Assembly: GCA_011050075.1 (NCBI GenBank)
Contig: DRGK01000017.1
Span: 39,838 to 103,837, forward strand
Direction of reading: 5' to 3'
Length of the DNA stretch: 64,000 nucleotides
From: Candidatus Jorgensenbacteria bacterium
GTDB taxonomy: Bacteria > Patescibacteriota > Minisyncoccia > UBA6257 > GWB1-50-10
Positions 15,330 to 40,168 of this stretch are shown in pieces. The notes under the pieces are model-generated. The model saw nothing but the letters and a program-made list of their open reading frames with translations. It ran no database searches and was not told the origin of the DNA. Position 1 is the first letter of the stretch; each line of letters begins with the position of its first letter. Both the position numbers and the translations under genes were made by a program.

Positions 15330-15340
15330 ATGCCCGATTA

Positions 15341-16415: not shown

Positions 16416-16417
16416 TA

Positions 16418-16447
16418 TTGACAAATGCAACTCGGTTGCGTTAAAAT
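16418..16447 (+). promoter_or_regulatory. Sigma70-type promoter for zur-znuACB
   Basis: TTGACA-N17/18-TAAAAT, ending ~7 nt before the zur ATG at 16454. Confidence 0.55.
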
Positions 16448-16453
16448 AATAAT

Positions 16454-16894: not shown

Positions 16895-17793
16895 AAAAGA
16901 TATTCATTGTCATTTTCTTGGTTATCATTTCTGTTGGCTCTGCTGTTACGTATAAAATAGTTATAACGGAACCTACAGAAACAGAAAAACTTAAAATCAC
17001 AACGAGCTTTTATCCACTCGCTGAGTTTGCTCGGCAGGTTGGAGGAAAAAATGTGGAAGTCATAAACATAACACCACCCGGTTCTGAACCGCATGATTAT
17101 GAGCCAACGCCACAAGATATTGTACATGTGAACTCATCTGAAATTTTCATTTTCAATGGAAGCAGTTTTGATCCATGGGCAGAGAAAATTGCGCCGAAGC
17201 TTGAGGAGGAGGGGATTAAAGTATTACGCATGACCGAGTATTTTGATTTGATTGGAACTGATGATGGTTCAGACCCACATATTTGGTTGAATCCGATATT
17301 AGCTAAGCAAGAAGTTGAGATTATTCGTGATACCCTTCAAAAAATTGACCCGACGAACAGTAGTATGTATAACGATAATGCTCAACAGTATCTTGGAAAA
17401 CTATCAGAGCTTGACCAAAAATTTCGAACAGGGCTGGCTTCTTGTGAACTTAGGGAAGCAATCGTTTCCCATGCAGCATTTGGCTACCTCGCAGAGCGGT
17501 ATGATATAGATATAATTTCAATTGCTGGAATATCTCCGGAGGAAGAACCATCACTGCGCCGACTGGGAGAAATAGCCAAACTTGCTCAAGAAAAAAACAT
17601 CAACTACATTTTCTTTGAAACACTGATAAGCCCAAAGTTGGCAGAAACCATAGCTCAAGAAATAGGAGCAGAGACACTCGTACTTAATCCTGTTGAGGGC
17701 CTTACTGACGAAGAAATTGAATCTGGTAAAAGTTATATATCGGAAATGGAAAAAAATCTCAGTAATTTACAACGCGCACTGGTATGCACATAA
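16891..17793 (+). CDS. znuA: Metal ABC transporter substrate-binding protein (ZnuA/TroA family)
   Basis: Signal peptide; cluster 9 solute-binding protein fold with conserved His/Asp (EPHDYEPT, DPHIWLNP); start overlaps the zur stop. Confidence 0.8.
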   Translation: MKKIFIVIFLVIISVGSAVTYKIVITEPTETEKLKITTSFYPLAEFARQVGGKNVEVINITPPGSEPHDYEPTPQDIVHVNSSEIFIFNGSSFDPWAEKIAPKLEEEGIKVLRMTEYFDLIGTDDGSDPHIWLNPILAKQEVEIIRDTLQKIDPTNSSMYNDNAQQYLGKLSELDQKFRTGLASCELREAIVSHAAFGYLAERYDIDIISIAGISPEEEPSLRRLGEIAKLAQEKNINYIFFETLISPKLAETIAQEIGAETLVLNPVEGLTDEEIESGKSYISEMEKNLSNLQRALVCT

Positions 17794-18548
17794 CAGACAA
17801 GAATACATGTATAGAGGTTGAAAATGTAAGCTTTCGATATGACGGCGATTCCGTTTTAGAGAATGTTACTTTTTCAGTTAATGCGGGTGAATACATGGGC
17901 ATTATTGGACCCAACGGTGGCGGGAAAACCACGCTGCTCAAAATAATTCTTGGATTGCTTGAGCCAACGACTGGTACGGTAAAGATTTTTGGGAATGAGG
18001 TGGGAAAATCCAAGAAAGCACTTCTTCAAATTGGTTATGTTCCCCAGAGGATATCTCGGGGAGATTTTCATTTTCCTGCGACTGTTGAAGAAATTGTTGC
18101 TAGCGGAAGAACTGCACGTAGGGGACTGCTCAAATGGTTTAATAAAGAAGATAAGACGGCAATAGAAGAAGCAATGGAAACTACCGAGATAACAGGATAC
18201 AGAAATCGGTCTATGAACAAACTATCCGGAGGAGAACAGCAGAAGGTTTTTATTGCGAGAGCCCTTGCAGGAGAACCTAAAATCTTGATTCTTGATGAAC
18301 CGGTGGTCGGTGTAGATATTACTTCTCAAGAAAAATTTTATGCATTCTTACAAAAAATAAATCAGCAATTCGGACTTACCATTATCTTCGTGTCGCACGA
18401 TATTGATGTTATTGCTCATCAAGTAAAATCTGTCTTATGTATCAATCGTGAACTCGTGTGCCACGGATCGCCAAAAGAATTTATTAAAGAAGAATTTATG
18501 GAAAAACTGTATGGTAAAAAGGTTAAATTTATCTTGCACGGACACTAA
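17784..18548 (+). CDS. znuC: Metal ABC transporter ATP-binding protein
   Basis: Walker A GPNGGGKTT, ABC signature LSGGEQQ, Walker B ILILDEP. Confidence 0.85.
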   Translation: MHITDKNTCIEVENVSFRYDGDSVLENVTFSVNAGEYMGIIGPNGGGKTTLLKIILGLLEPTTGTVKIFGNEVGKSKKALLQIGYVPQRISRGDFHFPATVEEIVASGRTARRGLLKWFNKEDKTAIEEAMETTEITGYRNRSMNKLSGGEQQKVFIARALAGEPKILILDEPVVGVDITSQEKFYAFLQKINQQFGLTIIFVSHDIDVIAHQVKSVLCINRELVCHGSPKEFIKEEFMEKLYGKKVKFILHGH

Positions 18549-25991: not shown

Positions 25992-27272
25992 ATGCGGGCG
26001 TACAACCCGACATTTGGTGTTCGTTCCTATGTTATAATACACTCAATGCGAAACATCAAATCGCTGAAACTGGCTGTTGAACGACAAATCGCCAACCCGC
26101 CCGGTGAAGTTTCTATTATTGAACTCGTTGATTTATTTGTGGAGTACGCATACAGCTCGCGTGCATCGGATATTCATATTGAACCGGGTGACGATAACGT
26201 AATAGTACGCCTGCGTATTGACGGTATCCTGCAGGATATTTTCACTTTACCCAAGGAACTGCAGTCAGAAGTGATCAGCCGCATCAAAGTACTTTCGGGA
26301 CTAAAAACGGATATTCATCACGTACCGCAGGATGGTAGGTTCAAAGCGAAGATAGGGGATGTGGAGGAGATTGATGTTCGTGTTTCCATTGCACCTACAT
26401 ACTCCGGTGAAAATGCAGTGATGCGTATCTTGGCGGAGACATCGCAGAAGTTCAAATTGGAAGACATTGGGTTTGATAAAAAGCAGTATCGTATGATAAT
26501 ACGCGCGATACACAAGCCGTATGGTATGATCCTCGCGAATGGTCCGACCGGCTCTGGAAAAACCACAACGCTTTACACGATTATCAAGGAGCTCAGTACC
26601 CGTGCGGTATCAATTATCACCATTGAGGACCCTATTGAATATTCTATTGAAGGCATTACTCAGATTCCCGTCAATGTACAGGCGGGGTTGAATTTTGCGA
26701 ACGGACTGCGTTCTATCTTACGGCAGGACCCGAACATTATCATGGTAGGGGAGATTCGCGACACCGAGACGGCGAGTATCGCGGTTAATGCGGCACTGAC
26801 CGGCCATCTCATGCTCTCAACGCTGCACACCAATGATGCGGCAACCACATTTCCGCGTCTTCTGGATATGGGTGTTCCTCCGTTTCTCGTCGCCTCAACA
26901 GTTAATATTGTTATTGCACAGCGTCTGATGCGAAAGGTATGCCAGAGTTGCCGGCAGCAGAAGTTCCTTTCTATTGCTGATATTGAACATCTTGGTCCGC
27001 TCGCCGAGGTATATATAGAAAAGAAAGTGTATACCGTAGGTGCCGGATGTGATGATTGTGACGGACTGGGTTATCGGGGCAGAGTTGGCATCTTTGAAGT
27101 ACTGTCGGTTAATGAGGAAATTCGTTCACTGATTGCTAACCGCTCAAGCGCTTCACAGATCAAGCAGGCGGCCGTAAAAAATGGTATGCATACCATGACT
27201 CAGGGAGCATTTGAAAAAGCAATACAGGGTGAAACGACCATTGAAGAAGTACTCCGTATGATATATGAGTAA
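25992..27272 (+). CDS. pilB: Type IV pilus assembly ATPase (PilB/GspE family)
   Basis: Walker A GPTGSGKTT; Asp/His boxes; tetracysteine CQSC…CDDC; GYRGRVGIFEVL; short form lacking the long N-domain. Confidence 0.85.
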   Translation: MRAYNPTFGVRSYVIIHSMRNIKSLKLAVERQIANPPGEVSIIELVDLFVEYAYSSRASDIHIEPGDDNVIVRLRIDGILQDIFTLPKELQSEVISRIKVLSGLKTDIHHVPQDGRFKAKIGDVEEIDVRVSIAPTYSGENAVMRILAETSQKFKLEDIGFDKKQYRMIIRAIHKPYGMILANGPTGSGKTTTLYTIIKELSTRAVSIITIEDPIEYSIEGITQIPVNVQAGLNFANGLRSILRQDPNIIMVGEIRDTETASIAVNAALTGHLMLSTLHTNDAATTFPRLLDMGVPPFLVASTVNIVIAQRLMRKVCQSCRQQKFLSIADIEHLGPLAEVYIEKKVYTVGAGCDDCDGLGYRGRVGIFEVLSVNEEIRSLIANRSSASQIKQAAVKNGMHTMTQGAFEKAIQGETTIEEVLRMIYE

Positions 27273-28368
27273 AAAACCGCGTAAGAATATACAAGTATCA
27301 CTCTTGCATTTTTTCAATGTTACGTTGATACCGTTACAGGAAAAGGTTAACTTTGCGCGCCATCTCTCAATAGGCATCAAAAGCGGCTTGTCTTTGCTCG
27401 ATACGTTGGATTTGATCAAACAGCAGACGTCGTCCAAGCGTTTTTCTGCGATGGTATCTCGTATCATGGAGGATATTAATAACGGCCAGTCATTAGCAGA
27501 TAGTCTGGAACGGTTTAATTATGTGTTCGGCCACCTGTTTATTAGCATGGTTCGCGTCGGAGAAGTTGGCGGGAACTTATCGGGAACGCTCGCGTATCTT
27601 TCTAACGAACTAAAAAAACAGAGAGAGCTTCATAATCGTGTGAAGTCGGCAATGATATACCCCGCGATTATTTTGATAGTGACGATAGGCATCACCGTGT
27701 TTCTCACTCTCTTTATTTTTCCTAAAATTCTCCCTATATTTCAAAGCTTGGGCGTACAGCTGCCGGCCAGCACACGGCTGATCATACAGACACTTTCATT
27801 TCTTGATAATTTTGGATTCTTGTTATTAGTCAGTATGGCGGTTTTTGCTATTGCGGTACGGGCGCTTCTATTTATACAGAAAGTTCGATACGGTATGCAC
27901 GCAGTGTCTTTGCGAATTCCATTTGTCTCGACGTTAATCATTAATGTAACCATTACGAGCTTTAGTCGTGTGCTCGCGGCGCTCCTCAAGAGTGGTATGA
28001 CACTACTGGACGCGCTCGTAGTTGTAAAAACAACTATCTCAAATTTGGTGTATCAGAAGCACGTCGAACAAATGATAGATGTTGTTCGACGTGGTGAAGA
28101 GATGACCAAGTACCTCAAGAAATATCCAAAACTATTCCCGCCGATGCTTGTCGGAATGATCAAGGTAGGTGAGGGAACCGGTAATTTAGAAGACAACCTG
28201 CTCTATCTTGCCGAGTACTACGAAAGCGAAGTTGATGAGACCGTCAATAACCTAACCACCATTCTTGAGCCGCTTCTCCTGCTCTTTATGGGTGTCATCG
28301 TTGGATTCATAGCGCTTTCCATTATCACACCGATTTATAAAGTAACGCAGGGACTAAACATTCGCTAA
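27265..28368 (+). CDS. pilC: Type IV pilus / type II secretion platform protein (PilC/GspF family)
   Basis: Two GspF repeats, 3 TM, ~367 aa; overlaps the pilB stop. Confidence 0.85.
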   Translation: MSKKPRKNIQVSLLHFFNVTLIPLQEKVNFARHLSIGIKSGLSLLDTLDLIKQQTSSKRFSAMVSRIMEDINNGQSLADSLERFNYVFGHLFISMVRVGEVGGNLSGTLAYLSNELKKQRELHNRVKSAMIYPAIILIVTIGITVFLTLFIFPKILPIFQSLGVQLPASTRLIIQTLSFLDNFGFLLLVSMAVFAIAVRALLFIQKVRYGMHAVSLRIPFVSTLIINVTITSFSRVLAALLKSGMTLLDALVVVKTTISNLVYQKHVEQMIDVVRRGEEMTKYLKKYPKLFPPMLVGMIKVGEGTGNLEDNLLYLAEYYESEVDETVNNLTTILEPLLLLFMGVIVGFIALSIITPIYKVTQGLNIR

Positions 28369-28853
28369 TGCTGTCCCTCAAACGTAAAACCTATAAACCC
28401 CTACCTACCGGCAGGCAGGTAAAATCTCAAAAAGGGTTCACTCTCCTTGAGATAATGATCGTTATTGGCCTCTTTGCTTTGCTCGTAGGCATTAGTATAC
28501 CGTTTGGACTTGATGTATACCGCAGCTACGTACTAATTTCCGAAACACGAAATATGGTTAGTTTCCTGCGACGCGCGGAGACGTTGTCTTTCACCAATAC
28601 CAGGAATGATTCGTATGGAGTTATGGTCATGAACGATCGATTCGTTGTGTTTCGTGGTGCGTCGTTTGCAACGCGTGATACTGCATTTGATGAAGAGTAT
28701 CTACGCTCGCCATTAGTAATCGTGTCGGGTATCGCGCATATTGTGTTTGCTGCGGTGACGGGAAGACCAGACATAATGGGTACCACAACATTCAGCAACG
28801 GCGTAAATGAACAAACAGTATTTATTAATGAACATGGCACACTTTTCTGGTGA
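28368..28853 (+). CDS. Prepilin-type (class III signal) pseudopilin with long basic leader
   Basis: …KPLPTGRQVKSQKG|FTLLEIMIVIGLFALLVG: Gly(-1), Phe(+1), Glu(+5) then a hydrophobic helix. Confidence 0.75.
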   Translation: MLSLKRKTYKPLPTGRQVKSQKGFTLLEIMIVIGLFALLVGISIPFGLDVYRSYVLISETRNMVSFLRRAETLSFTNTRNDSYGVMVMNDRFVVFRGASFATRDTAFDEEYLRSPLVIVSGIAHIVFAAVTGRPDIMGTTTFSNGVNEQTVFINEHGTLFW

Positions 28854-30249
28854 AAAGGGACAATCTCTCATAGAAATTCTTATTGCGTTCACACTCATCG
28901 TGCTTGGTATCGGGTCGGCGACGATACTGGTGTTTGGTGGACAAGGGCTGCTTATTGACAGGGGAAATACGGTACAAGCTCGTTCTCGTGCACAGGAAGG
29001 GTTACTTGCGGTAGAGCAGATGATACAGAACGATTGGGATTCGGTGTCAAATGGTACGTATGGCATTGTGTTCACCAACGGTACCTGGCAGCTATCCGGC
29101 GAAAGTACTATTGATGACCGATATACACGGTATGTCTCGGTAACCAGTATTGATGATAATCGGAAGGAGATTACAAGCAGTGTTGTATGGGAAACGGGTG
29201 GAGAAGGTTCCCGGATTGTTGAGTTTGTAACACTGGTTACCAACTGGCAAAATGTTGCACCGCCGTCACCGGATCCGGGAGATACGGGAGGTGGCGGAGT
29301 GAGCGGTAACTGGCAAAACCCGAGAACACTGGGTTCTGTTGATCTGGGTCCGGGAAATGAAGCATCAGACATTGATGTGATCAATAAGATCGTTTATATG
29401 TCTGCCACCGCGTCTTCTAAGAACAAGCCTGACTTCTTTATTATTGATGCAACCGATGGGGAAAATCCGGTAATGATATCTGAGCTTAATACCGGTCCGT
29501 CACTCAATTCCATTGATGCCAGCGGCAACTATGCATATGTGGCAAACGATGATGCGCAGGCACAGTTGCAGGTTATTGATGTGAGTGACATTAATAATCC
29601 TTCTATTACTGCGTCCCTTGAAGTTGCTGCTGACGCTGGAGGTACTGCTATATTCTTTACTAACGCAAAAATATATCTGGGCACCTACCAAAACGGTGCG
29701 GCTGAGTTTTATATCATTGATGTTTCGGACCCCTTAAACCCCAGCGTACTAGGCTCGTATGAAATGAACGGAACGGTGCGTGATATATATGTACGTAATA
29801 GTCGTGCATATATCACCGTTGAACGGGAAGTGGATACGGTAGCTATACTAAACGTTTCAACTCCTTCATCAATCGTATCGGAAGGAGGCGAATATATTGA
29901 TGAAGCATACGGTATCATGAGCATACGACCAGCACTCACCTTTATCGGCATTGATACTGATTTGGTTATTGCGGATACTGCGAATGCAGCCGCAGTGGCT
30001 ACAATTGGCTCTATCGGAATTGGCGGGAACGTCAATGATATTGCGGTGAGGGATTATCTCGTCTTTATTGCAACATCAAATAACAACAAAGAGTTCCAGA
30101 CAATTAACGTATCTGATCCAAGTAACCCATCAGTTCATTCTTCTTTTAATTTTTCGCAGGTTGGAACCGGTATTGATTACGAGGATAATATTGTCTACAT
30201 CTCAGTGAGAAGCAATGACGCTTTACGTATCATCACATCATCTCCATGA
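28807..30249 (+). CDS. Pilin-like protein fused to an LVIVD-repeat beta-propeller domain (candidate pilus tip/adhesin)
   Basis: N-terminus …GEKGQSLIEILIAFTLIVLG (prepilin-like); at least 4 LVIVD-type repeats (AYVANDDAQAQLQVIDVSDINNPS; IYLGTYQNGAAEFYIIDVSDPLNPS; AYITVEREVDTVAILNVSTPSS; VFIATSNNNKEFQTINVSDPSNPS). Confidence 0.65.
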   Translation: MNKQYLLMNMAHFSGEKGQSLIEILIAFTLIVLGIGSATILVFGGQGLLIDRGNTVQARSRAQEGLLAVEQMIQNDWDSVSNGTYGIVFTNGTWQLSGESTIDDRYTRYVSVTSIDDNRKEITSSVVWETGGEGSRIVEFVTLVTNWQNVAPPSPDPGDTGGGGVSGNWQNPRTLGSVDLGPGNEASDIDVINKIVYMSATASSKNKPDFFIIDATDGENPVMISELNTGPSLNSIDASGNYAYVANDDAQAQLQVIDVSDINNPSITASLEVAADAGGTAIFFTNAKIYLGTYQNGAAEFYIIDVSDPLNPSVLGSYEMNGTVRDIYVRNSRAYITVEREVDTVAILNVSTPSSIVSEGGEYIDEAYGIMSIRPALTFIGIDTDLVIADTANAAAVATIGSIGIGGNVNDIAVRDYLVFIATSNNNKEFQTINVSDPSNPSVHSSFNFSQVGTGIDYEDNIVYISVRSNDALRIITSSP

Positions 30250-30764
30250 AGACTCATAAACCCCTACCTACCGGCAAGCAAGTAAAATCTCAAAAAGGAT
30301 TCACGCTTATTGAAGCGCTTATCTATGCCACGCTATTAGGTATCTTTTTAGGCAGTGTCATTATTGTAGTTGGGAACATTCTTGCCTCTACCGATAGCAC
30401 ACTGGTGCGTAATGAGGTACTTGCCAATCAAGAGTTCGTTGAACAGAAACTTTCATGGCTTGCAGAACAGGCGACCGCGGTTACAGAACCACTCTCAGGA
30501 AGTTCCTCAACGCGAGTAGTTTTCACTGAACCGATATCCGGCACTAATCCGGCAATTTTTGAACTGCAGGACGGGAAAATTATGCTAACCCTCGGTTCCG
30601 GTGAAAGCGCTGCGCTGACCAATAATCGCGTGCGCGCGTCCGATTTCACCATTACCCACTACACATTAAACGGTGCATCACTGATACGAGTCTTATTTGG
30701 ACTTGAGCACATTGTCTACAGTCAAGTAACGAGCACGACCACACTCACCTTTATTATTCCGTAG
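30246..30764 (+). CDS. Prepilin-type pseudopilin with long basic leader (paralog of 28368..28853 at the N-terminus)
   Basis: MKTHKPLPTGKQVKSQKG|FTLIEALIYATLLGIF. Confidence 0.75.
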   Translation: MKTHKPLPTGKQVKSQKGFTLIEALIYATLLGIFLGSVIIVVGNILASTDSTLVRNEVLANQEFVEQKLSWLAEQATAVTEPLSGSSSTRVVFTEPISGTNPAIFELQDGKIMLTLGSGESAALTNNRVRASDFTITHYTLNGASLIRVLFGLEHIVYSQVTSTTTLTFIIP

Positions 30765-30767
30765 CAT

Positions 30768-31163
30768 ATGCAACACGATACATATCAACAGGGGTACGTA
30801 GCGGTTATGAGCGCTATTATCATTACCGCTATTCTGCTTGTCGTCGCATTGACCTTTAGTTCCAGTAGTTTTATGGGTAGGTTTGATACACAAGCAGTGG
30901 AATTCAAGATACTGACACGGAACTTAGCGCAGGGATGTATCGCGCATGCACAGTTAATGCTCGCGCTGGGAAGCTATACTGGCAATGAGGATGTGGTAGT
31001 GGGTGCATATACCTGCCGCGTCGTCTCCGTTACGCAGGGGAGCGGTATCATAACAGTGCAGGTAACTGCAATCATAGAGGACCACACTACAAATCTTGAA
31101 GCAGTCTTGGATAGCGCTACACTCGCTATTAATTCAGTTATAGAGATAAGTACGTTTGAGTAA
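30768..31163 (+). CDS. Membrane-anchored hypothetical protein in the pilus operon (PilX/minor-pilin-like?)
   Basis: N-terminal hydrophobic helix (VAVMSAIIITAILLVVAL) without a canonical G-F-x-x-x-E; operon position. Confidence 0.4.
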   Translation: MQHDTYQQGYVAVMSAIIITAILLVVALTFSSSSFMGRFDTQAVEFKILTRNLAQGCIAHAQLMLALGSYTGNEDVVVGAYTCRVVSVTQGSGIITVQVTAIIEDHTTNLEAVLDSATLAINSVIEISTFE

Positions 31164-31230
31164 ATATGGTATACTATCAATAGATAAGCTTTTTTAAGAA
31201 AAGGTCGTGTTTTTTTCAACATTATAGTAA

Positions 31231-31701
31231 ATGTCTAAAAATAGAGTGCAAAAAGTTAAAACAGAAGGTGGTTTTACATTAATTGAACTTTTGGTTGTTA
31301 TCGGCATCATCGCCATCCTTGCGGGTGTGGTGATTGTTGCCCTAAACCCGGCGCGACAGTTCGCGCAGGCACGCAACAGCCAACGTTGGTCAAATGTAAA
31401 TGCGATTTTGAATGCTGTAGGTCAGAACTTAGCTGATAACCGTGGGATATTCACCTGTGCTGCAGGAGTTATTCCAACGTCTGCGACAAATATGTCATCC
31501 TCTACATATGATATAGCGACATGTATTGTACCAACATACATGCCGACTATGCCATTTGACCCAAGTGATGCGAGCGCATACTACACCGATACGGCTGATT
31601 ACAACACGGTGTACAGTATTGTACGCAGTGCGACGACCAGCCGAATTACTGTCTCTTCACCATCAGCAGAATTAGAAGAAGCAATTGCAGTAACGAGATA
31701 G
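31231..31701 (+). CDS. pilA: Type IV major pilin (PilA-like) with prepilin leader
   Basis: MSKNRVQKVKTEG|GFTLIELLVVIGIIAILAGVVIV; own promoter and strong terminator; C-terminal Cys pair (FTCAAG…IATC). Confidence 0.8.
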   Translation: MSKNRVQKVKTEGGFTLIELLVVIGIIAILAGVVIVALNPARQFAQARNSQRWSNVNAILNAVGQNLADNRGIFTCAAGVIPTSATNMSSSTYDIATCIVPTYMPTMPFDPSDASAYYTDTADYNTVYSIVRSATTSRITVSSPSAELEEAIAVTR

Positions 31702-31721
31702 TCATTATACGTGTACTAACT

Positions 31722-31749
31722 AAAACCCCGGGATATGTCCCGGGGTTTT
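31722..31749 (+). terminator. Strong rho-independent terminator after the major pilin gene
   Basis: AAAACCCCGGGAtatgTCCCGGGGTTTT. Confidence 0.75.
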
Positions 31750-31815
31750 GACTGATTGAAAGTTTACTACATAACAAGCCATTTTTAGAGAAAATAGTGT
31801 GTTATAATTAGGATA

Positions 31816-32088
31816 ATGAAATTGCCGGAGTTTTTTAAACCAATTTTGTGGTCTTATGACTTTCCTGCCATAGATTCTGAGAAGAACAAGAAAGTTATTA
31901 TTGTGAATACGATAAATTACGGTGATTTAAAGCATTGGCATTGGTTGATACAACATTATGGGAAAGAGGCAGTTAAAGATGTTTTAGAACAGATCCCTTC
32001 AAGTGAAATAAGACCGCGGGCGCTTCGTCTCGCGACAACTATTTTCTCTATTAAAAACTTCAATTATGCACCTCGAGGTATTAACTGA
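31816..32088 (+). CDS. Small protein partner of the downstream nucleotidyltransferase (possible antitoxin-like component)
   Basis: 90 aa; overlaps the next ORF by 23 nt (coupled); AT-rich segment. Confidence 0.35.
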   Translation: MKLPEFFKPILWSYDFPAIDSEKNKKVIIVNTINYGDLKHWHWLIQHYGKEAVKDVLEQIPSSEIRPRALRLATTIFSIKNFNYAPRGIN

Positions 32089-32683
32089 GAAGGGCAAAGA
32101 AATTTTTTCCAGGCTTGATCGTTTTAATAAATTTTACCTCGCTGGTGGGACAGCATTAGCTTTGCAAATCGGACATAGGGCTTCAATTGACTTTGACTTA
32201 TTTTCCAAAAAAGAAATCCAGAAGGACTTTCTGTCTGAGATTGAGGAAGCTTTTCCTGGAGAGAACATATCAGTAGTTGTAAATAATCCCGATGAGGTAA
32301 CTGTTTTCGTAAGTGAAACGAAAGTTACTTTTTTGAAATATCCTTTCCCGTTGATATATGACCTTGTTAATTATGAAAGCGTAAACTTAGCAACCATTAA
32401 AGAAATAGCCGGAATCAAGGCCTATACAATTGGCAGAAGAGGATCTTTTAAAGATTACGTAGATTTATACTTTATTCTTTCTGAGAAGTATTTTTCTCTG
32501 AATGAGATTATTGACGTAGCTGAAAAGAAATACGGAAGTGATTTTAACTCACGACTTTTTCTTGAACAGCTTCTTTATTTGGAAGATATTACCGATACTG
32601 AAATTGTATTTTTAAAAGACAGCGTAGATAAAAAAGAACTAAGAAAATTTTTTGAGGAAGAAATAAAAAAGATTAAGATATAA
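32066..32683 (+). CDS. AbiEii/DUF1814-like nucleotidyltransferase (toxin-like NTase of a two-gene module)
   Basis: FYLAGGTALALQIGHRASIDFDLF matches the AbiEii N-terminal GGTAL…S/EDxDF core. Confidence 0.5.
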   Translation: MHLEVLTEKGKEIFSRLDRFNKFYLAGGTALALQIGHRASIDFDLFSKKEIQKDFLSEIEEAFPGENISVVVNNPDEVTVFVSETKVTFLKYPFPLIYDLVNYESVNLATIKEIAGIKAYTIGRRGSFKDYVDLYFILSEKYFSLNEIIDVAEKKYGSDFNSRLFLEQLLYLEDITDTEIVFLKDSVDKKELRKFFEEEIKKIKI

Positions 32684-32689
32684 AAATAA

Positions 32690-33610
32690 ATGACATTTGA
32701 ATCACCAAAATTTGAAGGAAAGGAACTTTCTCCTCTTAATAGGTGGGCCGAAAGAGGGGTCAAAGAAGCCTTGTCGGTCGTGAAAGAAAGATTTGAAAAT
32801 AAGGACAACAAAATTGAGAACCTTGATTTTCACAATACTCAGCACACGCAGAACGTGATACAAAGAACCGAGAAAATTCTCCTAGCAATGAGGGAGGGAA
32901 GTGCTCCAATTACCGAAAAGGACATTGCCCTTGGAAAGCTGTCATCGGCCCACCATGATGTTGTGCAGAGATGGGAGGAAAATAGAGTTAAGGACGGAAA
33001 TTTTGAGAAAGTAATGCGAAGACGCTTTATTGGTGATAACGAGAAAGCAAGCGCTCGCGCCGCGTTAGAGTTTATGGAAAAAGCAAATCAAGAAGCAGGA
33101 GAAGAGATTTTTAAAGATGAAGATATGGAAACGGTAAAAGAGGCGATTGTGGTTACTATCCCAGAATTTGATACGGAAAGGAAAACGGTTATCCAGCCGC
33201 ACCTCAATAAAGAATCGTCTTTTGTCGCAAGGGCTTTAGCTCTTGCAGATATTGGAGTCGCAGGCATGGAAGGATATAACGAGTTCGGTCAGGAAGGAGA
33301 CGCTCTTTTTAGAGAAGAGAATCTTGATATTCTCAGTGCTTTGGAAAACCCGGAAGAGCTTACATTAGAGCAGAAGGAGTATTTTAGAAACCGGATGCTT
33401 ATATGGAGCAAGTTCCAATCAGAGTTTGCCTCCGGCCGTAAGGCATTACTTGAAGAAGAACTAAGCGGTTTAACGTCTTCAGTTCAAGATGAAGTCAAAG
33501 ATTTATTTGATAAGTTTGATGAATCCATCGTGGGTGCGAAGGAAACCGCAGCTAAGCGAGAAGAGATGACCTTTGAAGAGTTAGCAAAGGACATGGGTTA
33601 TCGTCTTTAG
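32690..33610 (+). CDS. Hypothetical protein with putative HD-type metal-dependent phosphohydrolase motifs
   Basis: H…H (DFHNTQHTQN) and HD (SSAHHDVVQ) spaced as in HD domains; acidic C-terminus; AT-rich. Confidence 0.35.
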   Translation: MTFESPKFEGKELSPLNRWAERGVKEALSVVKERFENKDNKIENLDFHNTQHTQNVIQRTEKILLAMREGSAPITEKDIALGKLSSAHHDVVQRWEENRVKDGNFEKVMRRRFIGDNEKASARAALEFMEKANQEAGEEIFKDEDMETVKEAIVVTIPEFDTERKTVIQPHLNKESSFVARALALADIGVAGMEGYNEFGQEGDALFREENLDILSALENPEELTLEQKEYFRNRMLIWSKFQSEFASGRKALLEEELSGLTSSVQDEVKDLFDKFDESIVGAKETAAKREEMTFEELAKDMGYRL

Positions 33611-33623
33611 AAATCTCTAATTT

Positions 33624-35117
33624 ATGACTAAGTTTAAAACATACTATCTTTACTTCACCGTCTTTGTAACGGGTGCAGTAGTATTGATAATTGAAATCCT
33701 GGGAACAAGAATTCTCGCACCATTTTATGGTACAACAATTTTTGTGTGGTCTTCACTTCTCAGTGTCGCGCTCGGTTTTCTCGCGCTCGGCTATTGGGTG
33801 GGTGGTATTTGGGTTGATAGGAAGCCAAGCTTCTCCAATTTTTATGGGATCGTTTTTCTTGCTGCCACCACACTAGTACTGGCTATTAAACTGAACCGAG
33901 TTGTTCTCGTTTTCTCAGACCAATTCGGTTTGAAGTTTGGTCCACTCATTGCTTCGGTTTTACTTTTTGCGATACCACTTTTCTTATTGGGCATGATAAC
34001 GCCTTTTGCTATACGTTTGCGTACTAAATTAATAGAAAATGTGGGAACACGATCTGGGGGTATTTTTGCTATAGCGACCATTGGATCATTGATAGGAGCT
34101 CTACTCTCGGGTTTCTTCCTCATACCCATTTTATCTATAACGAATATTTTTTATATCACCACCTTACTTCTTGTAGTAATATCTGTTCTTGGTCTTTTAA
34201 TTTCGGGAAAAGAACAAATTAGTGGGAACCGTTATAGATGTCTCTTACTTTTCTTGATTTTTCTTGCTGTACTCTCAATTCCTTTGTTTAATATTGAAGC
34301 ACATAAGAATTCAAGAATTCTTTTTCAAAAACAAGGTTTCTACGGTGACATAAAAGTAGTTGAAATCGGAGAATCACGTTGTCTTGTAGTTAATGGGATG
34401 ACACAGACCTGTGTAAAAATAGAAACATATGACGGAGGTCTGTCATACATAGAAGAAATAGGGAGGATTTTAGCACTACGGCCGCAAGACAAAGACATCT
34501 TGCTTTTAGGACTTGGTGGAGGAAGTATAATGTCTTTTTTTTCAGAAATTCAGGAAATAGACATAATTGAAATAGCCCCCAAAATTATACATATCGCAGA
34601 AAGATTTTTTAACTTTCATCCAGACTTAAATCAGCGCATTATAATAGATGATGCCCGCAGTTTTTTGAGGAGGACAGACAAAAAATACGACCTTATTATT
34701 GCCGACGTGTTTTCGGCTACTACAATCCCTCTCCATCTTTCCACAAAAGAGTATTTTGAACTTTTAAAGAGTCACTTACATTCGGAGGGTCTTGTTCTTT
34801 TTAATTTTATTGGTCGTACTGGGCCAGAGGATCGGTATACAACCTCCTTTGTACGGACGCTACGTTCCGTTTTTCCCTCGGTGATAATTACAAGTCCAGT
34901 ACCAGGACTACAAAGTATGGTTCTCCATGCCTCGGTTGATGAGTCATACGCTCCTCGTATAGGTGAGGAGTTTTACGAAGTACCGGTAGCTGACGATATG
35001 GGAATACTATTGACTGATAATAAAAACCCCCTGGAATTGCTCGCCTTACCTAACCTTGAAGTGTTGCGAAGGAATTTAAAGTCATCCGGTGGTTTTGATT
35101 TGTTTTTCACCAACTGA
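33624..35117 (+). CDS. Membrane-anchored spermidine synthase-like (polyamine aminopropyltransferase fold) protein
   Basis: ~7 TM N-terminal domain fused to LLLGLGGGSIM…IDIIEIAPKII…IIADVF (SpeE/AdoMet-MTase-like). Confidence 0.6.
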   Translation: MTKFKTYYLYFTVFVTGAVVLIIEILGTRILAPFYGTTIFVWSSLLSVALGFLALGYWVGGIWVDRKPSFSNFYGIVFLAATTLVLAIKLNRVVLVFSDQFGLKFGPLIASVLLFAIPLFLLGMITPFAIRLRTKLIENVGTRSGGIFAIATIGSLIGALLSGFFLIPILSITNIFYITTLLLVVISVLGLLISGKEQISGNRYRCLLLFLIFLAVLSIPLFNIEAHKNSRILFQKQGFYGDIKVVEIGESRCLVVNGMTQTCVKIETYDGGLSYIEEIGRILALRPQDKDILLLGLGGGSIMSFFSEIQEIDIIEIAPKIIHIAERFFNFHPDLNQRIIIDDARSFLRRTDKKYDLIIADVFSATTIPLHLSTKEYFELLKSHLHSEGLVLFNFIGRTGPEDRYTTSFVRTLRSVFPSVIITSPVPGLQSMVLHASVDESYAPRIGEEFYEVPVADDMGILLTDNKNPLELLALPNLEVLRRNLKSSGGFDLFFTN

Positions 35118-35131
35118 AACACTCATTATCT

Positions 35132-36547
35132 ATGCCCCGCTTTTTAAATAGAAATTCCTTAGTTTTCATAGCACTTGCTACACTTGCAACTTTGCTTGTC
35201 TTTACCGTTTTGCCCTCTATCACAAATGCAGGCGGTACGTTTACCACCAACCAAGACAGTTTTAGGTTTAAAGGCGATACAGGCGGAGAAACGGCAACAG
35301 ACTGGATTGATGCCGAAGACACGAATATTACTCAAGCAAAAAACAGCAACTTTCGCATACGTATTCACTTTCATGAATCAGGTAATGCAGCCGGCGATGT
35401 GACACCTCTTTTAGAGTACAAAACTGCCTCTGGTAATGCATGTGCTAATACGACAGGGTGGACAACTATTACAACTGCAACGACAAATGCATTTGCTCTT
35501 GTCGATTCGTCACAGTTTGTTGAAGCAGTTGCAACTACTGAACAGTTATCAAGCTTTGGCGGAATAGGTTTTGTTGCTGGAGAACTCTTGGACCAAACTA
35601 ATCCCGGTACAATCATTACCATCGGTGCAAAAAACGAAAGTGAGTATGTATGGAACATGAAAGCAACGGACAATGCGGTCGATGGCACGGCGTACATATT
35701 TCGGGTGAGTAATAACGGCACCAACTTAACAAACTATAATGCCTGCCCGCAGGTAACAGTTCCTGCGGGCAATGCACCGCCCGTTGTTTCAAACGTTGCG
35801 TTGGATGGAGGAACAGCAATCACGCTCACAGAAAACACAACTAAAGCTGTTAGCGCTACGGCAGATGTATCAGATCCGAACGGCGCTGACGATATTATTT
35901 CAGCGACCTCAACCATCTACCGTTCCGGTGTCGGTGCGGGATGTACCGCTGATGATGAGAATTGCTACAAAATAGCGAGCTGCACGTTTTCTGGTGCGAC
36001 GAGTACCGTGACCTGCACGGCGAATATACAGTTCTTTGCCGACCCGACCGATGCAAGCTCTACTGCTTATTCTGCTCAGGATTGGCAGGCAGAAATTACG
36101 GTAACCGACTCTGCCAGTGCAACCGGTGCATCGAGCACTCTATCCGGCGTAGAGCTCAATACACTCTGGGCTATCGATATAACCGCAACTATTAACTACG
36201 GGGCTGTTAGTCCAACCGCAGATACAGGGAGTACAAATCAAAGCGTTACGGTTACCAACACAGGTAATGCGGCGATCGATATAGAGGCATCGGGGACTGA
36301 TATAACGCTTGGCGGTAGTACGATAGGAGTTGCCAATCAAAAGTATGCGACCTCCACCTTTACGTACTCGAGCTGTACAATCTGTACGGCACTTTCCTCA
36401 ACCCCCGCTGCATATGAGGTTGATTTACTCAAGCCGACCTCGGCCACGCCGGTTACAGATTTAATCTACTGGGGACTTGCGGTGCCAAACGGCACTGCGC
36501 AAGGGGTGCACAGCGGAACCAATACCTTTACCGCAATAGGCGATTAG
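35132..36547 (+). CDS. Secreted Thr/Ala-rich surface protein, paralog A
   Basis: Signal peptide; conserved Cys-containing module (RSGVGAGCTADDENCY); C-terminal VTVTNTGN… CARDB/DUF11-like module; ends …GTNTFTAIGD. Confidence 0.55.
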   Translation: MPRFLNRNSLVFIALATLATLLVFTVLPSITNAGGTFTTNQDSFRFKGDTGGETATDWIDAEDTNITQAKNSNFRIRIHFHESGNAAGDVTPLLEYKTASGNACANTTGWTTITTATTNAFALVDSSQFVEAVATTEQLSSFGGIGFVAGELLDQTNPGTIITIGAKNESEYVWNMKATDNAVDGTAYIFRVSNNGTNLTNYNACPQVTVPAGNAPPVVSNVALDGGTAITLTENTTKAVSATADVSDPNGADDIISATSTIYRSGVGAGCTADDENCYKIASCTFSGATSTVTCTANIQFFADPTDASSTAYSAQDWQAEITVTDSASATGASSTLSGVELNTLWAIDITATINYGAVSPTADTGSTNQSVTVTNTGNAAIDIEASGTDITLGGSTIGVANQKYATSTFTYSSCTICTALSSTPAAYEVDLLKPTSATPVTDLIYWGLAVPNGTAQGVHSGTNTFTAIGD

Positions 36548-36593
36548 TACAGGGTTGAATATGATATAATATACATAAAGAGGATGTAATAAT

Positions 36594-37541
36594 ATGAGAA
36601 GTACACTTTCTCTTCTTTTAAAAGTTTATATTTTCGCGATTCCCCTCGCGCTGCTACTGGTCGGGGGACTTTTAATGCTCACAAACACTATTTTAGCAGG
36701 CACTTCAAGCACATCAGTAACCGTTCAAGGCGCTGTCCCCACAGTTACCGTTGTTAACATTTCTCCCGATCCAATTATCCCGACCGAAAATGCAACGACG
36801 AGCATTACCATTACTGCAACAATTTCCGATTCAAACGGATGCGATGATGTATTCACAAGCGGTACTATCGCGGTCGCACTCTATCGGTCAGGTGTTGGTG
36901 CCAGTTGCTCGGTCGATGACAACAACTGTTATCAGAACATCACTTGGGCGGAGGTTGGCAATACCTGCGGGGGCGGTGCAGATACAAGCGGGGATATGGT
37001 TGCCACGGCAACGATATGGTACTTTACCGAAGCAACCGATGCGAGTTCAACATACTCAGGGGAAACATGGCAGGCTCAGGTCAAGGCAGTTGATGAGTCT
37101 AATGCAAGCTCTACCGCTACCGACGCGTCGCCCCCTGAGCTCAATTCGGTATATGCTCTCACTGTTGACAGTGCCATTGCGTACGGTTCTATGTCAGCAG
37201 ATGCTACGAGTACCTTGTCTGAGATTGGACAGTCAACGACGACGGTAACCAACACGGGAAATTACAAGATTGATACCGAGGTATCGGGTACCGATATGAC
37301 GGGTTCAGGTACCATTATTGCAAGCAAACAAAAATATGCTACCTCATTGTTAGGATATGAATCACTTACATACACACTCTCAACGTCTGCTACTGCAAGA
37401 GATTTAAATATTGTGAAAGCGACCTCTTCTTCTACGCCGTCAACGCAAGATACCTACTGGGGTATTTCTATCCCTAGCGCTCAGGCGGAAGGAGGTTATA
37501 GCGGAACCAACACATTTACCGCTATCTATTCAGCCGATTAG
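36594..37541 (+). CDS. Secreted Thr/Ser-rich surface protein, paralog B of 35132..36547
   Basis: Signal peptide; same modules (RSGVGASCSVDDNNCY; TTVTNTGNYKID…; ends …GTNTFTAIYSAD). Confidence 0.55.
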   Translation: MRSTLSLLLKVYIFAIPLALLLVGGLLMLTNTILAGTSSTSVTVQGAVPTVTVVNISPDPIIPTENATTSITITATISDSNGCDDVFTSGTIAVALYRSGVGASCSVDDNNCYQNITWAEVGNTCGGGADTSGDMVATATIWYFTEATDASSTYSGETWQAQVKAVDESNASSTATDASPPELNSVYALTVDSAIAYGSMSADATSTLSEIGQSTTTVTNTGNYKIDTEVSGTDMTGSGTIIASKQKYATSLLGYESLTYTLSTSATARDLNIVKATSSSTPSTQDTYWGISIPSAQAEGGYSGTNTFTAIYSAD

Positions 37542-37576
37542 TGCAGAGTCTACCAATATAGTAGCTAACGCGGCAA

Positions 37577-38608
37577 TTGTCCGCGCTTTGTTTTCTTAGT
37601 ATGATTACAGATATGCATATACGTTCTCTAACGTTGATTGTCATTACGTTGTCCTTACTTGCACCATCGGTAGTGGGTGCGTTCGGGGTTTCACCTCCAT
37701 TTATCACAGTACATAAACTTGTGGCTGGCTCGCGTTATGAAACAACAATTACCCTCGTTCAGGGACAGCCGGATGTTGATTTGGAAGTTAAGGCAGTGTT
37801 TGATGTACCTGAAAAGATTAGAGAATGGTTCAGTGTTGATAAGGGATATCAGTTTATAATCCCCGCTGGCGTTCAGCAGTTCCCGATACAAGTTGTTATT
37901 CAGGTTCCGAAAGATACCGGTCTTGGTATTTATAACGGGCACTTACGGATTAACACTGTTCCACAACGGAAAGAAGGTGAACAGATCGCAATCTCCGTTG
38001 GCGCACGCATCGATATCAACATTACGGTAGGGGATGATATTGTCGTTGATTTTTCAGTTAAGAAAATTGACATCTCTGACATTAGAGAAAACGAGTCACC
38101 TCAGATCGTTGTCACTATAGAGAATACGGGGAATGTTCCCATTACACCGGACAGAGCAACATTTGACCTGCTTGATAAGTACGGGGAAGTACGGCTCGGC
38201 TTTGCACAAACGGAGGACTTGCCAGAGACGCCAGCCTTTGAAACTAAAACTTTTGTCGTAGCATTTCCCATAGACATTAAGCTCGGCGTGGGAGAGTACT
38301 GGGGTGAAGCACGATTATATAGAGGTGGGACAATAATTGGGGATGTAAAAACTATCTTCAATGTAACTCCAAGACCAAATTATATACTCTTTATTGGTAT
38401 TGGCTTACTTATTATTGGAGCCGGTGTTTCTATATTTATATTTAAAAAGAAAGCAAGTCGTAAGCCAACGAGTCGTAAGAGAACAGTAACAAAAAAGAAA
38501 GCTGTAAGGAAAACTGCCCGTAAACCAAAAAAACAAGTTAGTAGTAAGAAAAAATTGAATAAGAAAAAGACAGTAAAAACAAAGCAAAAGAAGAGCATTG
38601 GCTCATGA
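37577..38608 (+). CDS. Secreted CARDB-like surface protein with C-terminal TM anchor and poly-lysine cytoplasmic tail
   Basis: Signal peptide; …VVTIENTGNVPITPD…; TM (ILFIGIGLLIIGAGVSIFIF), then KKKASRKPTSRKRTVTKKKAVRK…. Confidence 0.5.
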   Translation: MSALCFLSMITDMHIRSLTLIVITLSLLAPSVVGAFGVSPPFITVHKLVAGSRYETTITLVQGQPDVDLEVKAVFDVPEKIREWFSVDKGYQFIIPAGVQQFPIQVVIQVPKDTGLGIYNGHLRINTVPQRKEGEQIAISVGARIDINITVGDDIVVDFSVKKIDISDIRENESPQIVVTIENTGNVPITPDRATFDLLDKYGEVRLGFAQTEDLPETPAFETKTFVVAFPIDIKLGVGEYWGEARLYRGGTIIGDVKTIFNVTPRPNYILFIGIGLLIIGAGVSIFIFKKKASRKPTSRKRTVTKKKAVRKTARKPKKQVSSKKKLNKKKTVKTKQKKSIGS

Positions 38609-40149
38609 AATGGTACGCGTTTACGGCAGTTTGTTTCGCAGTAATCGGACTCATGATAACGGTGGGCATTACAAATGCTGGAACAGCTTCCGTAACGGTA
38701 ACGGTAACGCTTGCCGAGTGCTCTGACAGTATTGACAACGACGGTGATTTTTTAACCGACTATCCCAATGACACGGAGTGCGATTCGGGTACCGATAACA
38801 GTGAAAACATTGCCGGCACCGAGACGCATGCAACATCTACTATTGAAACAAGCGGGGGCAGTTTTTCTTTTGATAATGCTGATAGTTTAGCCGTTGATTT
38901 TACGTTTCAGAACGGGTTTCATGGTAGTTCAGTACGGTTATTCGTGAACTCGTATGCAACTAGCTCTTTTGAATCGAGCAAGCCAGCACCTTCTGGGAAG
39001 AGCTTCGTTGGTAAAACATACGACATCATTCTGTACGAGAACGCATCACCGAATAATTCTATTGCAACAACTTCCAAAGCTATTACCATCGTGATGCAAT
39101 ATTTGGATAGTGATGTAAGCAGTATCGATGAAAGCAACGTTCTGCCGTATCGTTGGAGTACAAGCACATCGGCGTGGGCGATAATATCTGGCAGCTCACT
39201 TGATACATCAAACAATAAAGTAACTTTTTCTACCACCGATTTCAGTTCATTTAGCTTGCTCGGCACAAACCTTTCTGAATTCCAATGCAGTGACGGTATT
39301 GACAATGATGGGGATGGTAAGATTGACTATCCATCCGACCCTGGGTGTTCATCAACAACCGATGATAATGAAACAGACCCGCAGCAGGCACCAGGTGGCG
39401 GTGGAGGCGGCGGTGCTACGATAACAGCACCGCCTCAGGTTACATTCAGCGGGTTAGCATATCCCGGCAGTAAAGTAACAATACTGAAAGATGCTCAAGT
39501 AGCTGCGGTAACTATAGCCGGTCCCGATGCGAAATTTAAAGCGGGCCTGTCCAAACTCTCAACCGGAAACTACAATTTCGGCATTTGGGCTGCTGATACA
39601 TCCGGTCGAAGATCGGTTACACATACATTTGCACTGAGCGTTAAGCCCGGCTCTTCTGTTACGGTAAGCGGCATTTTCCTGCCTCCTACCATATCAATAG
39701 ACAAAAGTGAGGTAAGGAAAGGTGATGTATTGGGTATTGCGGGGCAGAGCGCTCCTGAGGCTAACGTTTCTCTTATTGTTCATTCACATTCTATTGTGAA
39801 GAAGGTGACCGTTGATAAGAGCGGGGCGTGGTTTTATAAACTGGACACCACCGAGCTTGAGTATGGTAAGCACTCCACACAGGCGAAGTCAGAAACGGAA
39901 AACGATATCAGTTCACTCTCGCAACTACTGCTTTTCAAAGTTGGTACAAAAAGCAAGAAAGCCATTCCCTTAGCAGTAGTAGAACTTAAGGGTGACGTGA
40001 ACAGCGATGAGAAAGTTAATTTGGTTGATTTCAGTATCGCAGCGTATTGGTATAAAAGACCGTCCCCCCCATCCGCCGTTGATTTAAACAACGATGGGAA
40101 AGTTGATTTAGTGGACTTCAGTATTATGGCATACTGGTGGACGGGATAG
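38605..40149 (+). CDS. Secreted protein with Ca-binding Asp-rich Cys-flanked motifs and a C-terminal dockerin domain
   Basis: Signal peptide; CSDSIDNDGDFLTDYPNDTEC and CSDGIDNDGDGKIDYPSDPGC; C-terminal GDVNSDEKVNLVDFSIAAYWY…DLNNDGKVDLVDFSIMAYWW, a dockerin type-I-like duplicated Ca-loop/helix. Confidence 0.65.
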   Translation: MKWYAFTAVCFAVIGLMITVGITNAGTASVTVTVTLAECSDSIDNDGDFLTDYPNDTECDSGTDNSENIAGTETHATSTIETSGGSFSFDNADSLAVDFTFQNGFHGSSVRLFVNSYATSSFESSKPAPSGKSFVGKTYDIILYENASPNNSIATTSKAITIVMQYLDSDVSSIDESNVLPYRWSTSTSAWAIISGSSLDTSNNKVTFSTTDFSSFSLLGTNLSEFQCSDGIDNDGDGKIDYPSDPGCSSTTDDNETDPQQAPGGGGGGGATITAPPQVTFSGLAYPGSKVTILKDAQVAAVTIAGPDAKFKAGLSKLSTGNYNFGIWAADTSGRRSVTHTFALSVKPGSSVTVSGIFLPPTISIDKSEVRKGDVLGIAGQSAPEANVSLIVHSHSIVKKVTVDKSGAWFYKLDTTELEYGKHSTQAKSETENDISSLSQLLLFKVGTKSKKAIPLAVVELKGDVNSDEKVNLVDFSIAAYWYKRPSPPSAVDLNNDGKVDLVDFSIMAYWWTG

Positions 40150-40168
40150 TGAAAACTAAACTGCAATT

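Follow-up and report, generated by a model that had tools for sequence, protein, structure and literature searches.

Seven genes for a reduced type IV filament

Seven co-directional ORFs, all on the plus strand, occupy positions 26046-31701 of the analysed window, a stretch of 64,000 nt from Candidatus Jorgensenbacteria bacterium. In order, they encode a PilB/GspE-type ATPase and a PilC/GspF-type platform protein, then four minor pilins and, in last place, the major pilin. Neighbouring genes overlap or are separated by no more than 3 nt, with the only exception of a 67-nt gap preceding the last gene (ORF7). The T2SSE ATPase, the two-domain T2SSF platform and the class III pilins described below place the locus within the type IV filament (T4F) superfamily, and the Pfam and NCBIfam matches of the seven ORFs bear out the original prediction of a reduced filament operon in a CPR (Patescibacteria) genome.

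The first gene, pilB (26046..27272, plus strand), encodes a protein of 408 aa, matched by the Pfam T2SSE model (PF00437) at 1e-121; no Pfam match to MshEN (PF05157) was obtained. The best solved relative is the Geobacter PilB (6olj, 368 bits), and the alignment covers residues 200-583 of that structure. Pairwise comparison gave 312 bits against GspE and only 125 bits against PilT. A Walker A motif is located at residue 166, a Walker B at 231 and a His box at 253, together with two CxxC motifs. Judging from these sequence features, PilB is an extension-type ATPase which begins at the N2 domain and is devoid of the N-terminal MshEN/N1 domain. The longest pilB ORF opens at 25992, which had been taken as the start of the gene; this is 54 nt too far upstream, as relatives L001 and L002 have PilB ORFs of 408 aa whose alignment begins at residue 1, and 26046 is most likely the true start.

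The second gene, pilC (27265..28368, plus strand), encodes a polytopic platform protein of 367 aa with two T2SSF domains (PF00482, 3e-59, in two stretches). None of the NCBIfam models tested on the operon proteins reached its equivalog cut-off. PilB scored 482 with the PilB model (TIGR02538, cut-off 675), 491 with GspE (cut-off 630) and 247 with ComGA (NF041000, cut-off 300), while PilC scored 288 with GspF (cut-off 424), 253 with the PilC model, also under its cut-off, and 173 with ComGB (NF041012, cut-off 240).

A six-frame regular expression search for class III signal motifs, performed on the whole 64 kb, returned exactly four sequences, all of the form G/[FQ][TS]L[LI]E (the slash follows the conserved Gly) and located in ORF3, ORF4, ORF5 and ORF7. 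Three of these, ORF3, ORF5 and ORF7, also match the Pfam N_methyl model above the gathering score. Minor pilin 1 (ORF3, H position; 28368..28853, plus strand) has 161 aa, a leader ending in KSQKG/FTLLE and an N_methyl match at 3e-7; it weakly matches the N-terminus of GspH, and homologues are found in the equivalent position in relatives. Minor pilin 3 (ORF5, J position; 30246..30764, plus strand) has 172 aa, a leader ending in KSQKG/FTLIE and an N_methyl match at 1e-6, and its position is likewise conserved among relatives.

Minor pilin 2 (ORF4; 28828..30249, plus strand) has 473 aa. Its leader ends in GEKG/QSLIE, with Glu5 present. Pfam reports LVIVD (PF08309, 42.7 bits over a cut-off of 20.2) as well as Beta_propel, and N_methyl matches weakly at GQSLIE. 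In the AF2 model (pLDDT 89.5) a helix and a sheet (residues 14-138) are followed by a Gly-rich linker and by a propeller (166-470) of seven blades with four strands each. According to this model, ORF4 is a modular type IV pilin, composed of a class III signal peptide, a pilin module and an independently folded propeller; the LVIVD pilin originally proposed is thus seen as a true pilin-propeller fusion. Hundreds of homologues were found. The structural matches of the propeller are generic WD40-type propellers, and PilY1 does not appear among the top 60.

The start of ORF4 is probably 28828 or 28834, and not 28807: a database protein 98% identical to it has 473 aa, and gene calls on strain contigs range from 471 to 473 aa. 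A 480-aa form has no exact database match, most likely because gene callers place the start later, as in an identical strain contig where 471 aa are called. A minus-strand ORF of 223 aa (28713-29384), overlapping ORF4, was judged spurious, because family matches and hundreds of homologues belong to the plus frame.

Minor pilin 4 (ORF6; 30768..31163, plus strand) has 131 aa and lacks Glu5. Neither ORF6 nor its short homologues show Pfam matches, and a profile of the family produced only chance matches when compared to PDB sequences; however, a pilin fold is predicted, whose nearest structure is GspK. ORF6 is therefore better described as a GspK/PilX-like candidate cap pilin than as the "small anchor protein" initially listed beside two pseudopilins, and the operon accordingly contains four minor pilins. 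As four adjacent minor-pilin genes, the last of which encodes a Glu5-less protein with a GspK-like pilin core, they correspond to the H-I-J-K core set.

The last gene (ORF7; 31231..31701, plus strand) encodes the major pilin candidate, of 156 aa, with leader MSKNRVQKVKTEG/FTLIELLVV, an N_methyl match at 8e-7 and cysteines at 76 and 98. [quoted passage not shown] The GspG model aligns across residues 14-124. Between strains the mature part is identical and the leader differs; tandem paralogues are present in two relatives (L035, L037).

The remaining genes of a conventional locus were searched for in the window and in the 10 kb past either end (84 kb in total). Pfam scans of about 60 other ORFs in the window revealed no PilM_2, PilN, PilO, secretin or Peptidase_A24, nor any GspC, GspD, GspL or GspM. 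No second T2SSE was detected by Pfam in the window or in either flank, so that no PilT is encoded in the window, and the prepilin-peptidase motif G.GD[VI]K has zero matches in any frame of the window. The claim that pilM/N/O/Q, pilT and a prepilin peptidase gene are missing from the window therefore stands. None of them was found in the 10-kb flanks either, so that the outcome named beforehand as contrary to the prediction, the rest of the pilus genes lying just outside the window, did not occur. ComEA and ComEC were also found neither in the window nor in its flanks.

These results bear on whether the genes might rather build a type II-secretion-like pseudopilus, exporting proteins across the S-layer or the wall of the cell, with no external pilus. 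The GspE and GspF models score slightly above or equal to the pilus models, GspG can be aligned over the ORF7 stretch given above, and GspK is the closest structure to ORF6. On the other hand, the GspE and GspF equivalog cut-offs are not reached, PilB is pairwise nearer to pilus PilBs than to GspE, and GspC, GspD, GspL and GspM are missing from the window; to our knowledge, moreover, no type II secretion system is known from bacteria that lack an outer membrane. All type IV filaments have GspK-like caps in common (PMC9934059), and pili have been observed on CPR cells (PMC11623550). Pseudopilus-driven secretion is thus considered very unlikely.

Transcription signals

An extended -10 element, TGTTATAAT (26030..26038, plus strand), was read from the sequence, with 7 nt separating it from the ATG of pilB downstream. 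The motif TGnTATAAT is found at the identical distance from the ATG in L001 and L003, where the rest of the intergenic DNA is unrelated. The element is the probable operon promoter, and its conserved position suggests a leaderless pilB mRNA. It was not picked up by a consensus promoter scan, as no good -35 is present; the same scan reported fewer sites than in its shuffled controls.

An extended -10-like element, TGGTATACT (31167..31175, plus strand), also read from the sequence, lies in the 67-nt gap upstream of the major pilin gene, and TGGTAT-type motifs occur in the equivalent gap of three relatives (L019, L025, L026). It is a possible internal promoter. The separate transcription of the major pilin, as originally proposed, is plausible but unproven; the consensus scan returned no site in the gap.

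The strong terminator expected after the major pilin was confirmed by folding. A hairpin with a 13-bp stem, resembling an intrinsic terminator with A-tract and U-tract arms, closes the operon (31721..31750, plus strand); its folding energy is -22.2 kcal/mol (z = -3.6), and none of 200 shuffles folds equally well. An equivalent hairpin with a T-run is found right behind the major pilin in nine of the 12 relatives checked. It was not detected by a consensus terminator scan, because the U-tract belongs to the stem; the evidence for this terminator and for the pilB -10 element comes instead from folding and from the relatives.

A conserved clade of loci with short PilBs

PilC is 100% identical in three other assemblies. 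Comparison between strains gives an identity of 100% for PilC and ORF3, and of 93-99.5% for the remaining proteins. The sample of loci consisted of the top 80 PilB relatives. The seven-gene order, together with a PilB of 405-440 aa, was also found at 13 other loci, and the reduced operon is kept across lineages where PilB identity is only 53-72%.

The status of MshEN was assessed by Pfam scans of example PilBs, and by using PilB length as a proxy. In the scanned examples, long PilBs carry MshEN, and PilM_2, PilN and PilO come next in the locus. When the comparison was restricted to loci followed by 7 kb of sequence or more, PilM was found near the locus in 1 of 15 cases with a short PilB and in 28 of 34 with a long one (Fisher p = 7e-7, not corrected for phylogeny). 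Loss of MshEN is associated with loss of PilM. In a neighbour-joining tree, built without support values, short-PilB loci form one clade, whose sister group (L030, L032, L034, L035) retains an ORF4-like gene and PilM_2, the latter flanked by the ORF6-like gene on one side and by the major pilin on the other, at the site of the gap observed here. The two sister PilBs scanned, those of L032 and L035, carry MshEN.

Conservation also speaks to the idea that the operon is a decaying, non-working remnant of a full pilus locus, from which PilM/N/O, PilT, PilD and the PilB N-terminus were lost. Several components counted as core in T4aP are indeed missing, and PilB does lack its N-terminal domain. However, all seven ORFs are intact, the catalytic motifs of PilB are present, the promoter element and terminator are conserved, and the reduced operon is kept across lineages and nearly invariant between strains, with hundreds of homologues for ORF4. 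Decay is largely refuted already, and can be regarded as most improbable.

The published CPR pilus includes PilM, PilN, PilO, PilT and PilD (PMC6744442, PMC11623550). The reduced set is thus not typical of CPR pili, as had been stated, but forms a distinct and conserved Patescibacteria clade, in which PilB has no MshEN and the locus no PilM. Of the marks of canonical T4aP, the published CPR pilus included, the PilM/N/O complex is missing from the window and flanks and the MshEN domain from PilB, and the TIGR02538 score falls short of its cut-off. The layout is found in numerous related genomes, yet no paper was found in which it is treated as a type of its own. Similarly, neither an LVIVD pilin nor a CPR pilus with a short PilB was found described in the literature; this search was incomplete, and novelty is not proven.

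Related filaments and a proposed working of the system

Alongside an ATPase without N1 and a platform, the comG operon of monoderms (comGA-GG) encodes a major pilin and four minor ones, with Glu5 absent from the last. It contains no PilM/N/O and no PilT, and its peptidase gene lies elsewhere. The present locus has the same seven-part complement, also without PilM/N/O/T. A short, PilT-independent competence pseudopilus could capture extracellular DNA and pass it to ComEC, scavenging nucleotides for a CPR cell unable to make them. This function is judged unlikely, given that the ComGA and ComGB scores are under their cut-offs and far under the PilB/GspE scores, to which the ATPase is nearer, that the major pilin is encoded in last place and not in third, and that no link to ComEA/ComEC is seen in the window or flanks. 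In addition, a minor pilin bears a conserved 300-residue propeller, of which the sole experimentally tested parallel is an adhesin (PMC11623550). Adhesion and DNA uptake are, in any case, mutually compatible roles.

That parallel comes from the Saccharibacteria, where Nanosynbacter lyticus TM7x needs the propeller-bearing minor pilin PilX2 for host binding (PMC11623550). The T4P-2 system of TM7x (PMC11623550, PMC12206443) resembles the one described here in being a CPR system with neither a retraction ATPase of its own nor a secretin (here, as far as the window and its flanks go), in having several minor pilins and one major, and in carrying a seven-bladed beta-propeller on a minor pilin. It differs in that it includes PilM2, PilN2 and PilO2 and has its pilins in a separate locus, whereas here a single operon is found, with a PilB lacking MshEN and with no PilM/N/O. 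The PilX2 propeller is made of RCC1 repeats and has no predicted PilD signal peptide, while that of ORF4 is of the LVIVD type and follows a G/QSLIE signal with Glu5.

Modular pilins also occur at the pilus tip of Streptococcus sanguinis, where PilB (vWA), PilC (lectin) and a Glu5-less PilA cap are found (PMC8179133, PMC9934059); there, the modules are different from a propeller, the minor pilins are three instead of four, and PilM/N/O, PilT and PilD are encoded in the locus. Four contiguous minor-pilin genes, the last Glu5-less and with a GspK-like fold, are shared with the FimU-PilV-PilW-PilX and GspH-I-J-K sets (PMC7541494, PMC7248040), although ORF6 has no large alpha-domain as in GspK, and the operon no secretin or PilMNOP. 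Display of a beta-propeller at the tip, as proposed here, is known from T4aP with PilY1, which is a separate, non-pilin protein, and not a propeller fused to a pilin.

The locus is likely to be an operon complete in structural and assembly genes, from which an ultra-small Patescibacteria (CPR) cell, bounded by no outer membrane, would build a streamlined type IV filament. It would be transcribed as one mRNA, probably leaderless, from the pilB ATG, with an optional internal start ahead of the major pilin, and transcription would stop at the 31721-31750 hairpin. Hexameric PilB, devoid of MshEN, would contact the PilC platform directly, without a PilM/N/O alignment complex. Prepilin processing and retraction are assumed: a prepilin peptidase, presumably encoded elsewhere in the genome, would cut the pilins behind their conserved Gly. 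From the four minor pilins an H-I-J-K-like priming complex would arise, with the Glu5-less, GspK-like ORF6 on top, ORF4 exposing its seven-bladed LVIVD propeller at the tip, and the major pilin ORF7 polymerising below. This tip arrangement is derived from single-chain AF2 models and from analogy; the GspK-like, Glu5-less ORF6 fits the HIJK model (PMC9934059). ORF4 is probably a tip adhesin, its propeller most likely binding a host cell or a surface, as may be expected by comparison with PilX2.

A broader proposal, to which slightly less than even odds are given, is that these loci define a subclass of type IV filaments not described so far and restricted to Patescibacteria. At its origin, PilM and the MshEN/N1 domain of PilB, on which PilM is presumed to dock, would have been lost together, and the variable gap that precedes the major pilin would be the scar; the filament would run on ATPase and platform alone, and the pilin-fused LVIVD propeller would be a host-recognition device of Paceibacteria-type episymbionts.

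Every part of the operon belongs to known families, and nothing established is overturned. In current thinking, type IV pili play a central part in how a CPR bacterium locates its host and keeps hold of it, and the systems tested come only from Saccharibacteria; the operon described here is a simpler machine, widespread in other Patescibacteria. Whether PilM/N/O and the N1 domain of PilB are jointly dispensable is a question for which it provides a natural experiment, and, as a compact and conserved unit, it offers a minimal pilus for reconstitution. The LVIVD propeller pilin is a candidate adhesin, which may help in tracing the hosts of uncultivated Paceibacteria-type lineages.

Gene content of the operon and of its flanks

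Seven ORFs, all on the plus strand, span positions 25992 to 31701 of the window; neighbouring genes overlap or are separated by no more than 3 nt, the exception being a gap of 67 nt 5' of ORF7. By Pfam, ORF1 (PilB) matches T2SSE (1e-121) and ORF2 (PilC) contains two T2SSF domains, while the N_methyl prepilin motif is found in ORF3, ORF5 and ORF7, the last being the major pilin. ORF4 combines LVIVD/Beta_propel with a weak N_methyl match, and ORF6 gave no match in the Pfam scan. NCBIfam assignments agree with Pfam, with scores below the equivalog cut-offs throughout, both for the ATPase (PilB 482/675, GspE 491/630, ComGA 247/300) and for the platform protein (GspF 288/424, ComGB 173/240). Exactly four class III signal peptides were detected in the 64 kb by a six-frame motif search.

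The PilB protein features Walker A, Walker B, a His box and two CxxC motifs. Among solved ATPases it resembles the extension-type Geobacter PilB (368 bits) much more closely than PilT (125 bits). The alignment covers only residues 200-583 of the solved PilB, and the window protein therefore lacks the N-terminal MshEN/N1 domain.

In about 60 further ORFs of the window, Pfam revealed no second T2SSE, PilM_2, PilN, PilO, secretin or Peptidase_A24, nor was the prepilin-peptidase motif G.GD[VI]K found in any of the six frames of the window. Exact-protein look-ups identified Logan contig SRR7787320_5, identical to the window at all genes compared in a shared 12.5-kb stretch, and a close strain on a 172-kb ENA scaffold. 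The original prediction of a minimal pilus operon would have been refuted by remaining T4P genes just outside the window, which would have made this a conventional locus; the 10 kb past each window end hold only housekeeping genes, and the refutation therefore fails. Published CPR pili contain PilM, PilN, PilO, PilT and PilD (PMC6744442).

The main rival to an adhesive pilus is a Com-like DNA-uptake filament: the gene complement is the same as that of the comG operon, and DNA scavenging is to be expected of CPR cells. The two roles are compatible. About 3.7 kb outside the window, on its 3' side (contigs L087-L089), a DprA gene (DNA_processg_A) adjoins topA. It bears on DNA uptake, but DprA is too widespread to be diagnostic.

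Predicted expression signals and conservation between strains

In the closest relatives, PilB ORFs are exactly 408 aa long, and their alignment with the protein that starts at 26046 begins at its residue 1. This ATG is preceded, at a distance of 7 nt, by a perfect extended -10 (TGTTATAAT, 26030-26038); the same position holds TGATATAAT and TGCTATAAT in relatives L001 and L003, within otherwise unrelated surrounding sequence. From these data we infer a leaderless operon mRNA, starting at 26046. The start of ORF4 is probably 28828 or 28834. ORF7 is followed by a 13-bp hairpin (31721-31750), with a folding energy of -22.2 kcal/mol (z = -3.6), and 9 of 12 relatives checked have an equivalent hairpin with a T-run after the major pilin. 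The 67-nt gap contains TGGTATACT, and three relatives (L019, L025, L026) have similar motifs in the corresponding gap; a consensus promoter scan detected no internal promoter there. A putative promoter before ORF7 is plausible but unproven.

Identity to the ENA strain is 100% for PilC and ORF3 and 93-99.5% for the rest of the operon. The 142 residues of the mature major pilin are identical in the two strains, while the leaders, MSKNRVQKVKTEG (window 31231-31272) and MSKNKVLEGVLKANSTKG (L081 13968-14024), differ in both sequence and length, a pattern that fits cleavage between G and F. Such conservation argues against decay of the operon, and a dead remnant of a pilus locus is unlikely.

Locus types among PilB relatives

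Nearly all of the 80 top-scoring PilB relatives from species-representative genomes, the best of them 72% identical, are labelled as Patescibacteria lineages or unclassified 'bacterium' MAGs; about 12 automated records are titled 'uncultured Gammaproteobacteria'. Three locus types can be distinguished. Type (a), the window's own, consists of a short PilB (405-440 aa), PilC, ORF3-, ORF4-, ORF5- and ORF6-like genes and then the major pilin; type (b) of a long PilB with MshEN, PilC and pilins, followed by PilM, PilN and PilO; type (c) of a long PilB, PilT, PilC and a pilin, followed by a PilD-motif protein. The type (a) layout recurs in three further contigs, according to precomputed Pfam annotation.

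When only loci with 7 kb or more of downstream sequence are counted, a nearby PilM occurs in 1 of 15 short-PilB loci versus 28 of 34 long-PilB loci (p = 7e-7, by a test that ignores phylogeny). Short PilBs form one clade in an NJ tree, with two long members nested inside: in L007 (9491-11224) an N-terminal response-regulator receiver domain replaces MshEN, and the equally long L021 is placed with it by tree position only. The sister group (L030, L032, L034, L035) retains an ORF4-like gene and PilM_2, the latter exactly between the ORF6-like gene and the major pilin, and MshEN is present in both of its PilBs scanned (L032, L035). It is most economical to assume that PilM and the N-terminal domain of PilB were lost together; the two are expected docking partners, given the GspE-GspL and PilB-PilM contacts. 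The gap 5' of the major pilin, which varies from -25 to 167 nt among loci, would then be the scar of the joint loss.

The short-PilB genome L016 also carries a PilM_2 gene (3-785, minus strand), 9 kb upstream of the operon on the same contig, so two pilus systems can coexist in one genome. The peptidase probably comes from a second locus of this kind. Variants also exist inside the clade of the window's PilB: the ORF6 position is taken in L020 by a 1011-aa VWA-domain protein (15238-18273), and L002, L007 and L021 have a different minor-pilin cassette, with members of about 600, 200 and 480 aa.

In six relatives (L001, L002, L004, L006, L090, L092) dnaX lies directly 3' of the type (a) operon. 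In the window, about 10.7 kb (31751-42496) separate the pilus terminator from dnaX (42497-43603, minus strand). This insert encodes a DUF6922/AbiEii toxin-antitoxin pair, a 306-aa protein without matches, a spermidine-synthase-like membrane protein and six unmatched or surface proteins, one of which (38605-40149) has dockerin and Big_6 domains. Two insert genes diverge between strains (33624-35117, 48% identical; 35132-36547, 66%), with flanking genes at 98-100%, which makes 33624-36547 a local hypervariable spot, where a surface cassette may have been swapped.

The minor pilins and the proposed role of the pilus

At least 516 homologues of ORF4 were found, and all those named by a source are Patescibacteria (Jorgensen-, Lipton- and Brennerbacteria, Paceibacterota). 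Its AlphaFold2 model (pLDDT 89.5) has four parts: a pilin helix (residues 14-68), a pilin sheet (76-138), a conserved Gly-rich linker and a seven-bladed propeller of 28 strands (166-470). The H-I-J-K model has the tip capped by the K subunit, which is devoid of Glu5 (PMC9934059); by this analogy ORF3-ORF6 resemble a set of four pilins for priming and for the tip, in which ORF6 would be the cap and ORF4 would present the propeller. In TM7x, host binding requires PilX2, likewise a propeller-bearing minor pilin (PMC11623550). By analogy with PilX2, the reading ranked first is an adhesive pilus that carries the LVIVD propeller at the tip; a pseudopilus serving secretion is unlikely.

Cys pairs occur in ORF6 (57/83, invariant) and in the major pilin (Cys76/Cys98), and a cluster of DsbD_TM, Redoxin/thioredoxin-like, DUF3105 and DUF3179 genes (Pfam) lies at 13388-16354. 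Thiol-disulfide oxidoreductases are enriched in CPR, with a proposed role in pilin folding (PMC6744442).

The leader regions of ORF3 and ORF5 share a 50-nt stretch (28393-28442 and 30256-30305; 46/50 identical, core 38/40) encoding KPLPTG[RK]QVKSQKG, the rest of the two genes being dissimilar. No such common stretch was seen in the 12 relatives whose pilin N-termini were inspected. It could result from gene conversion, or be a shared regulatory or RNA element.

All parts of the operon come from known families. What is distinctive is their combination, of which no description was found in the searchable literature: a PilB that lacks N1, the absence of PilM/N/O, an LVIVD-propeller pilin fusion, a cap that is small and K-like, and a major pilin in last position. 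The bearers of this combination are one conserved clade.
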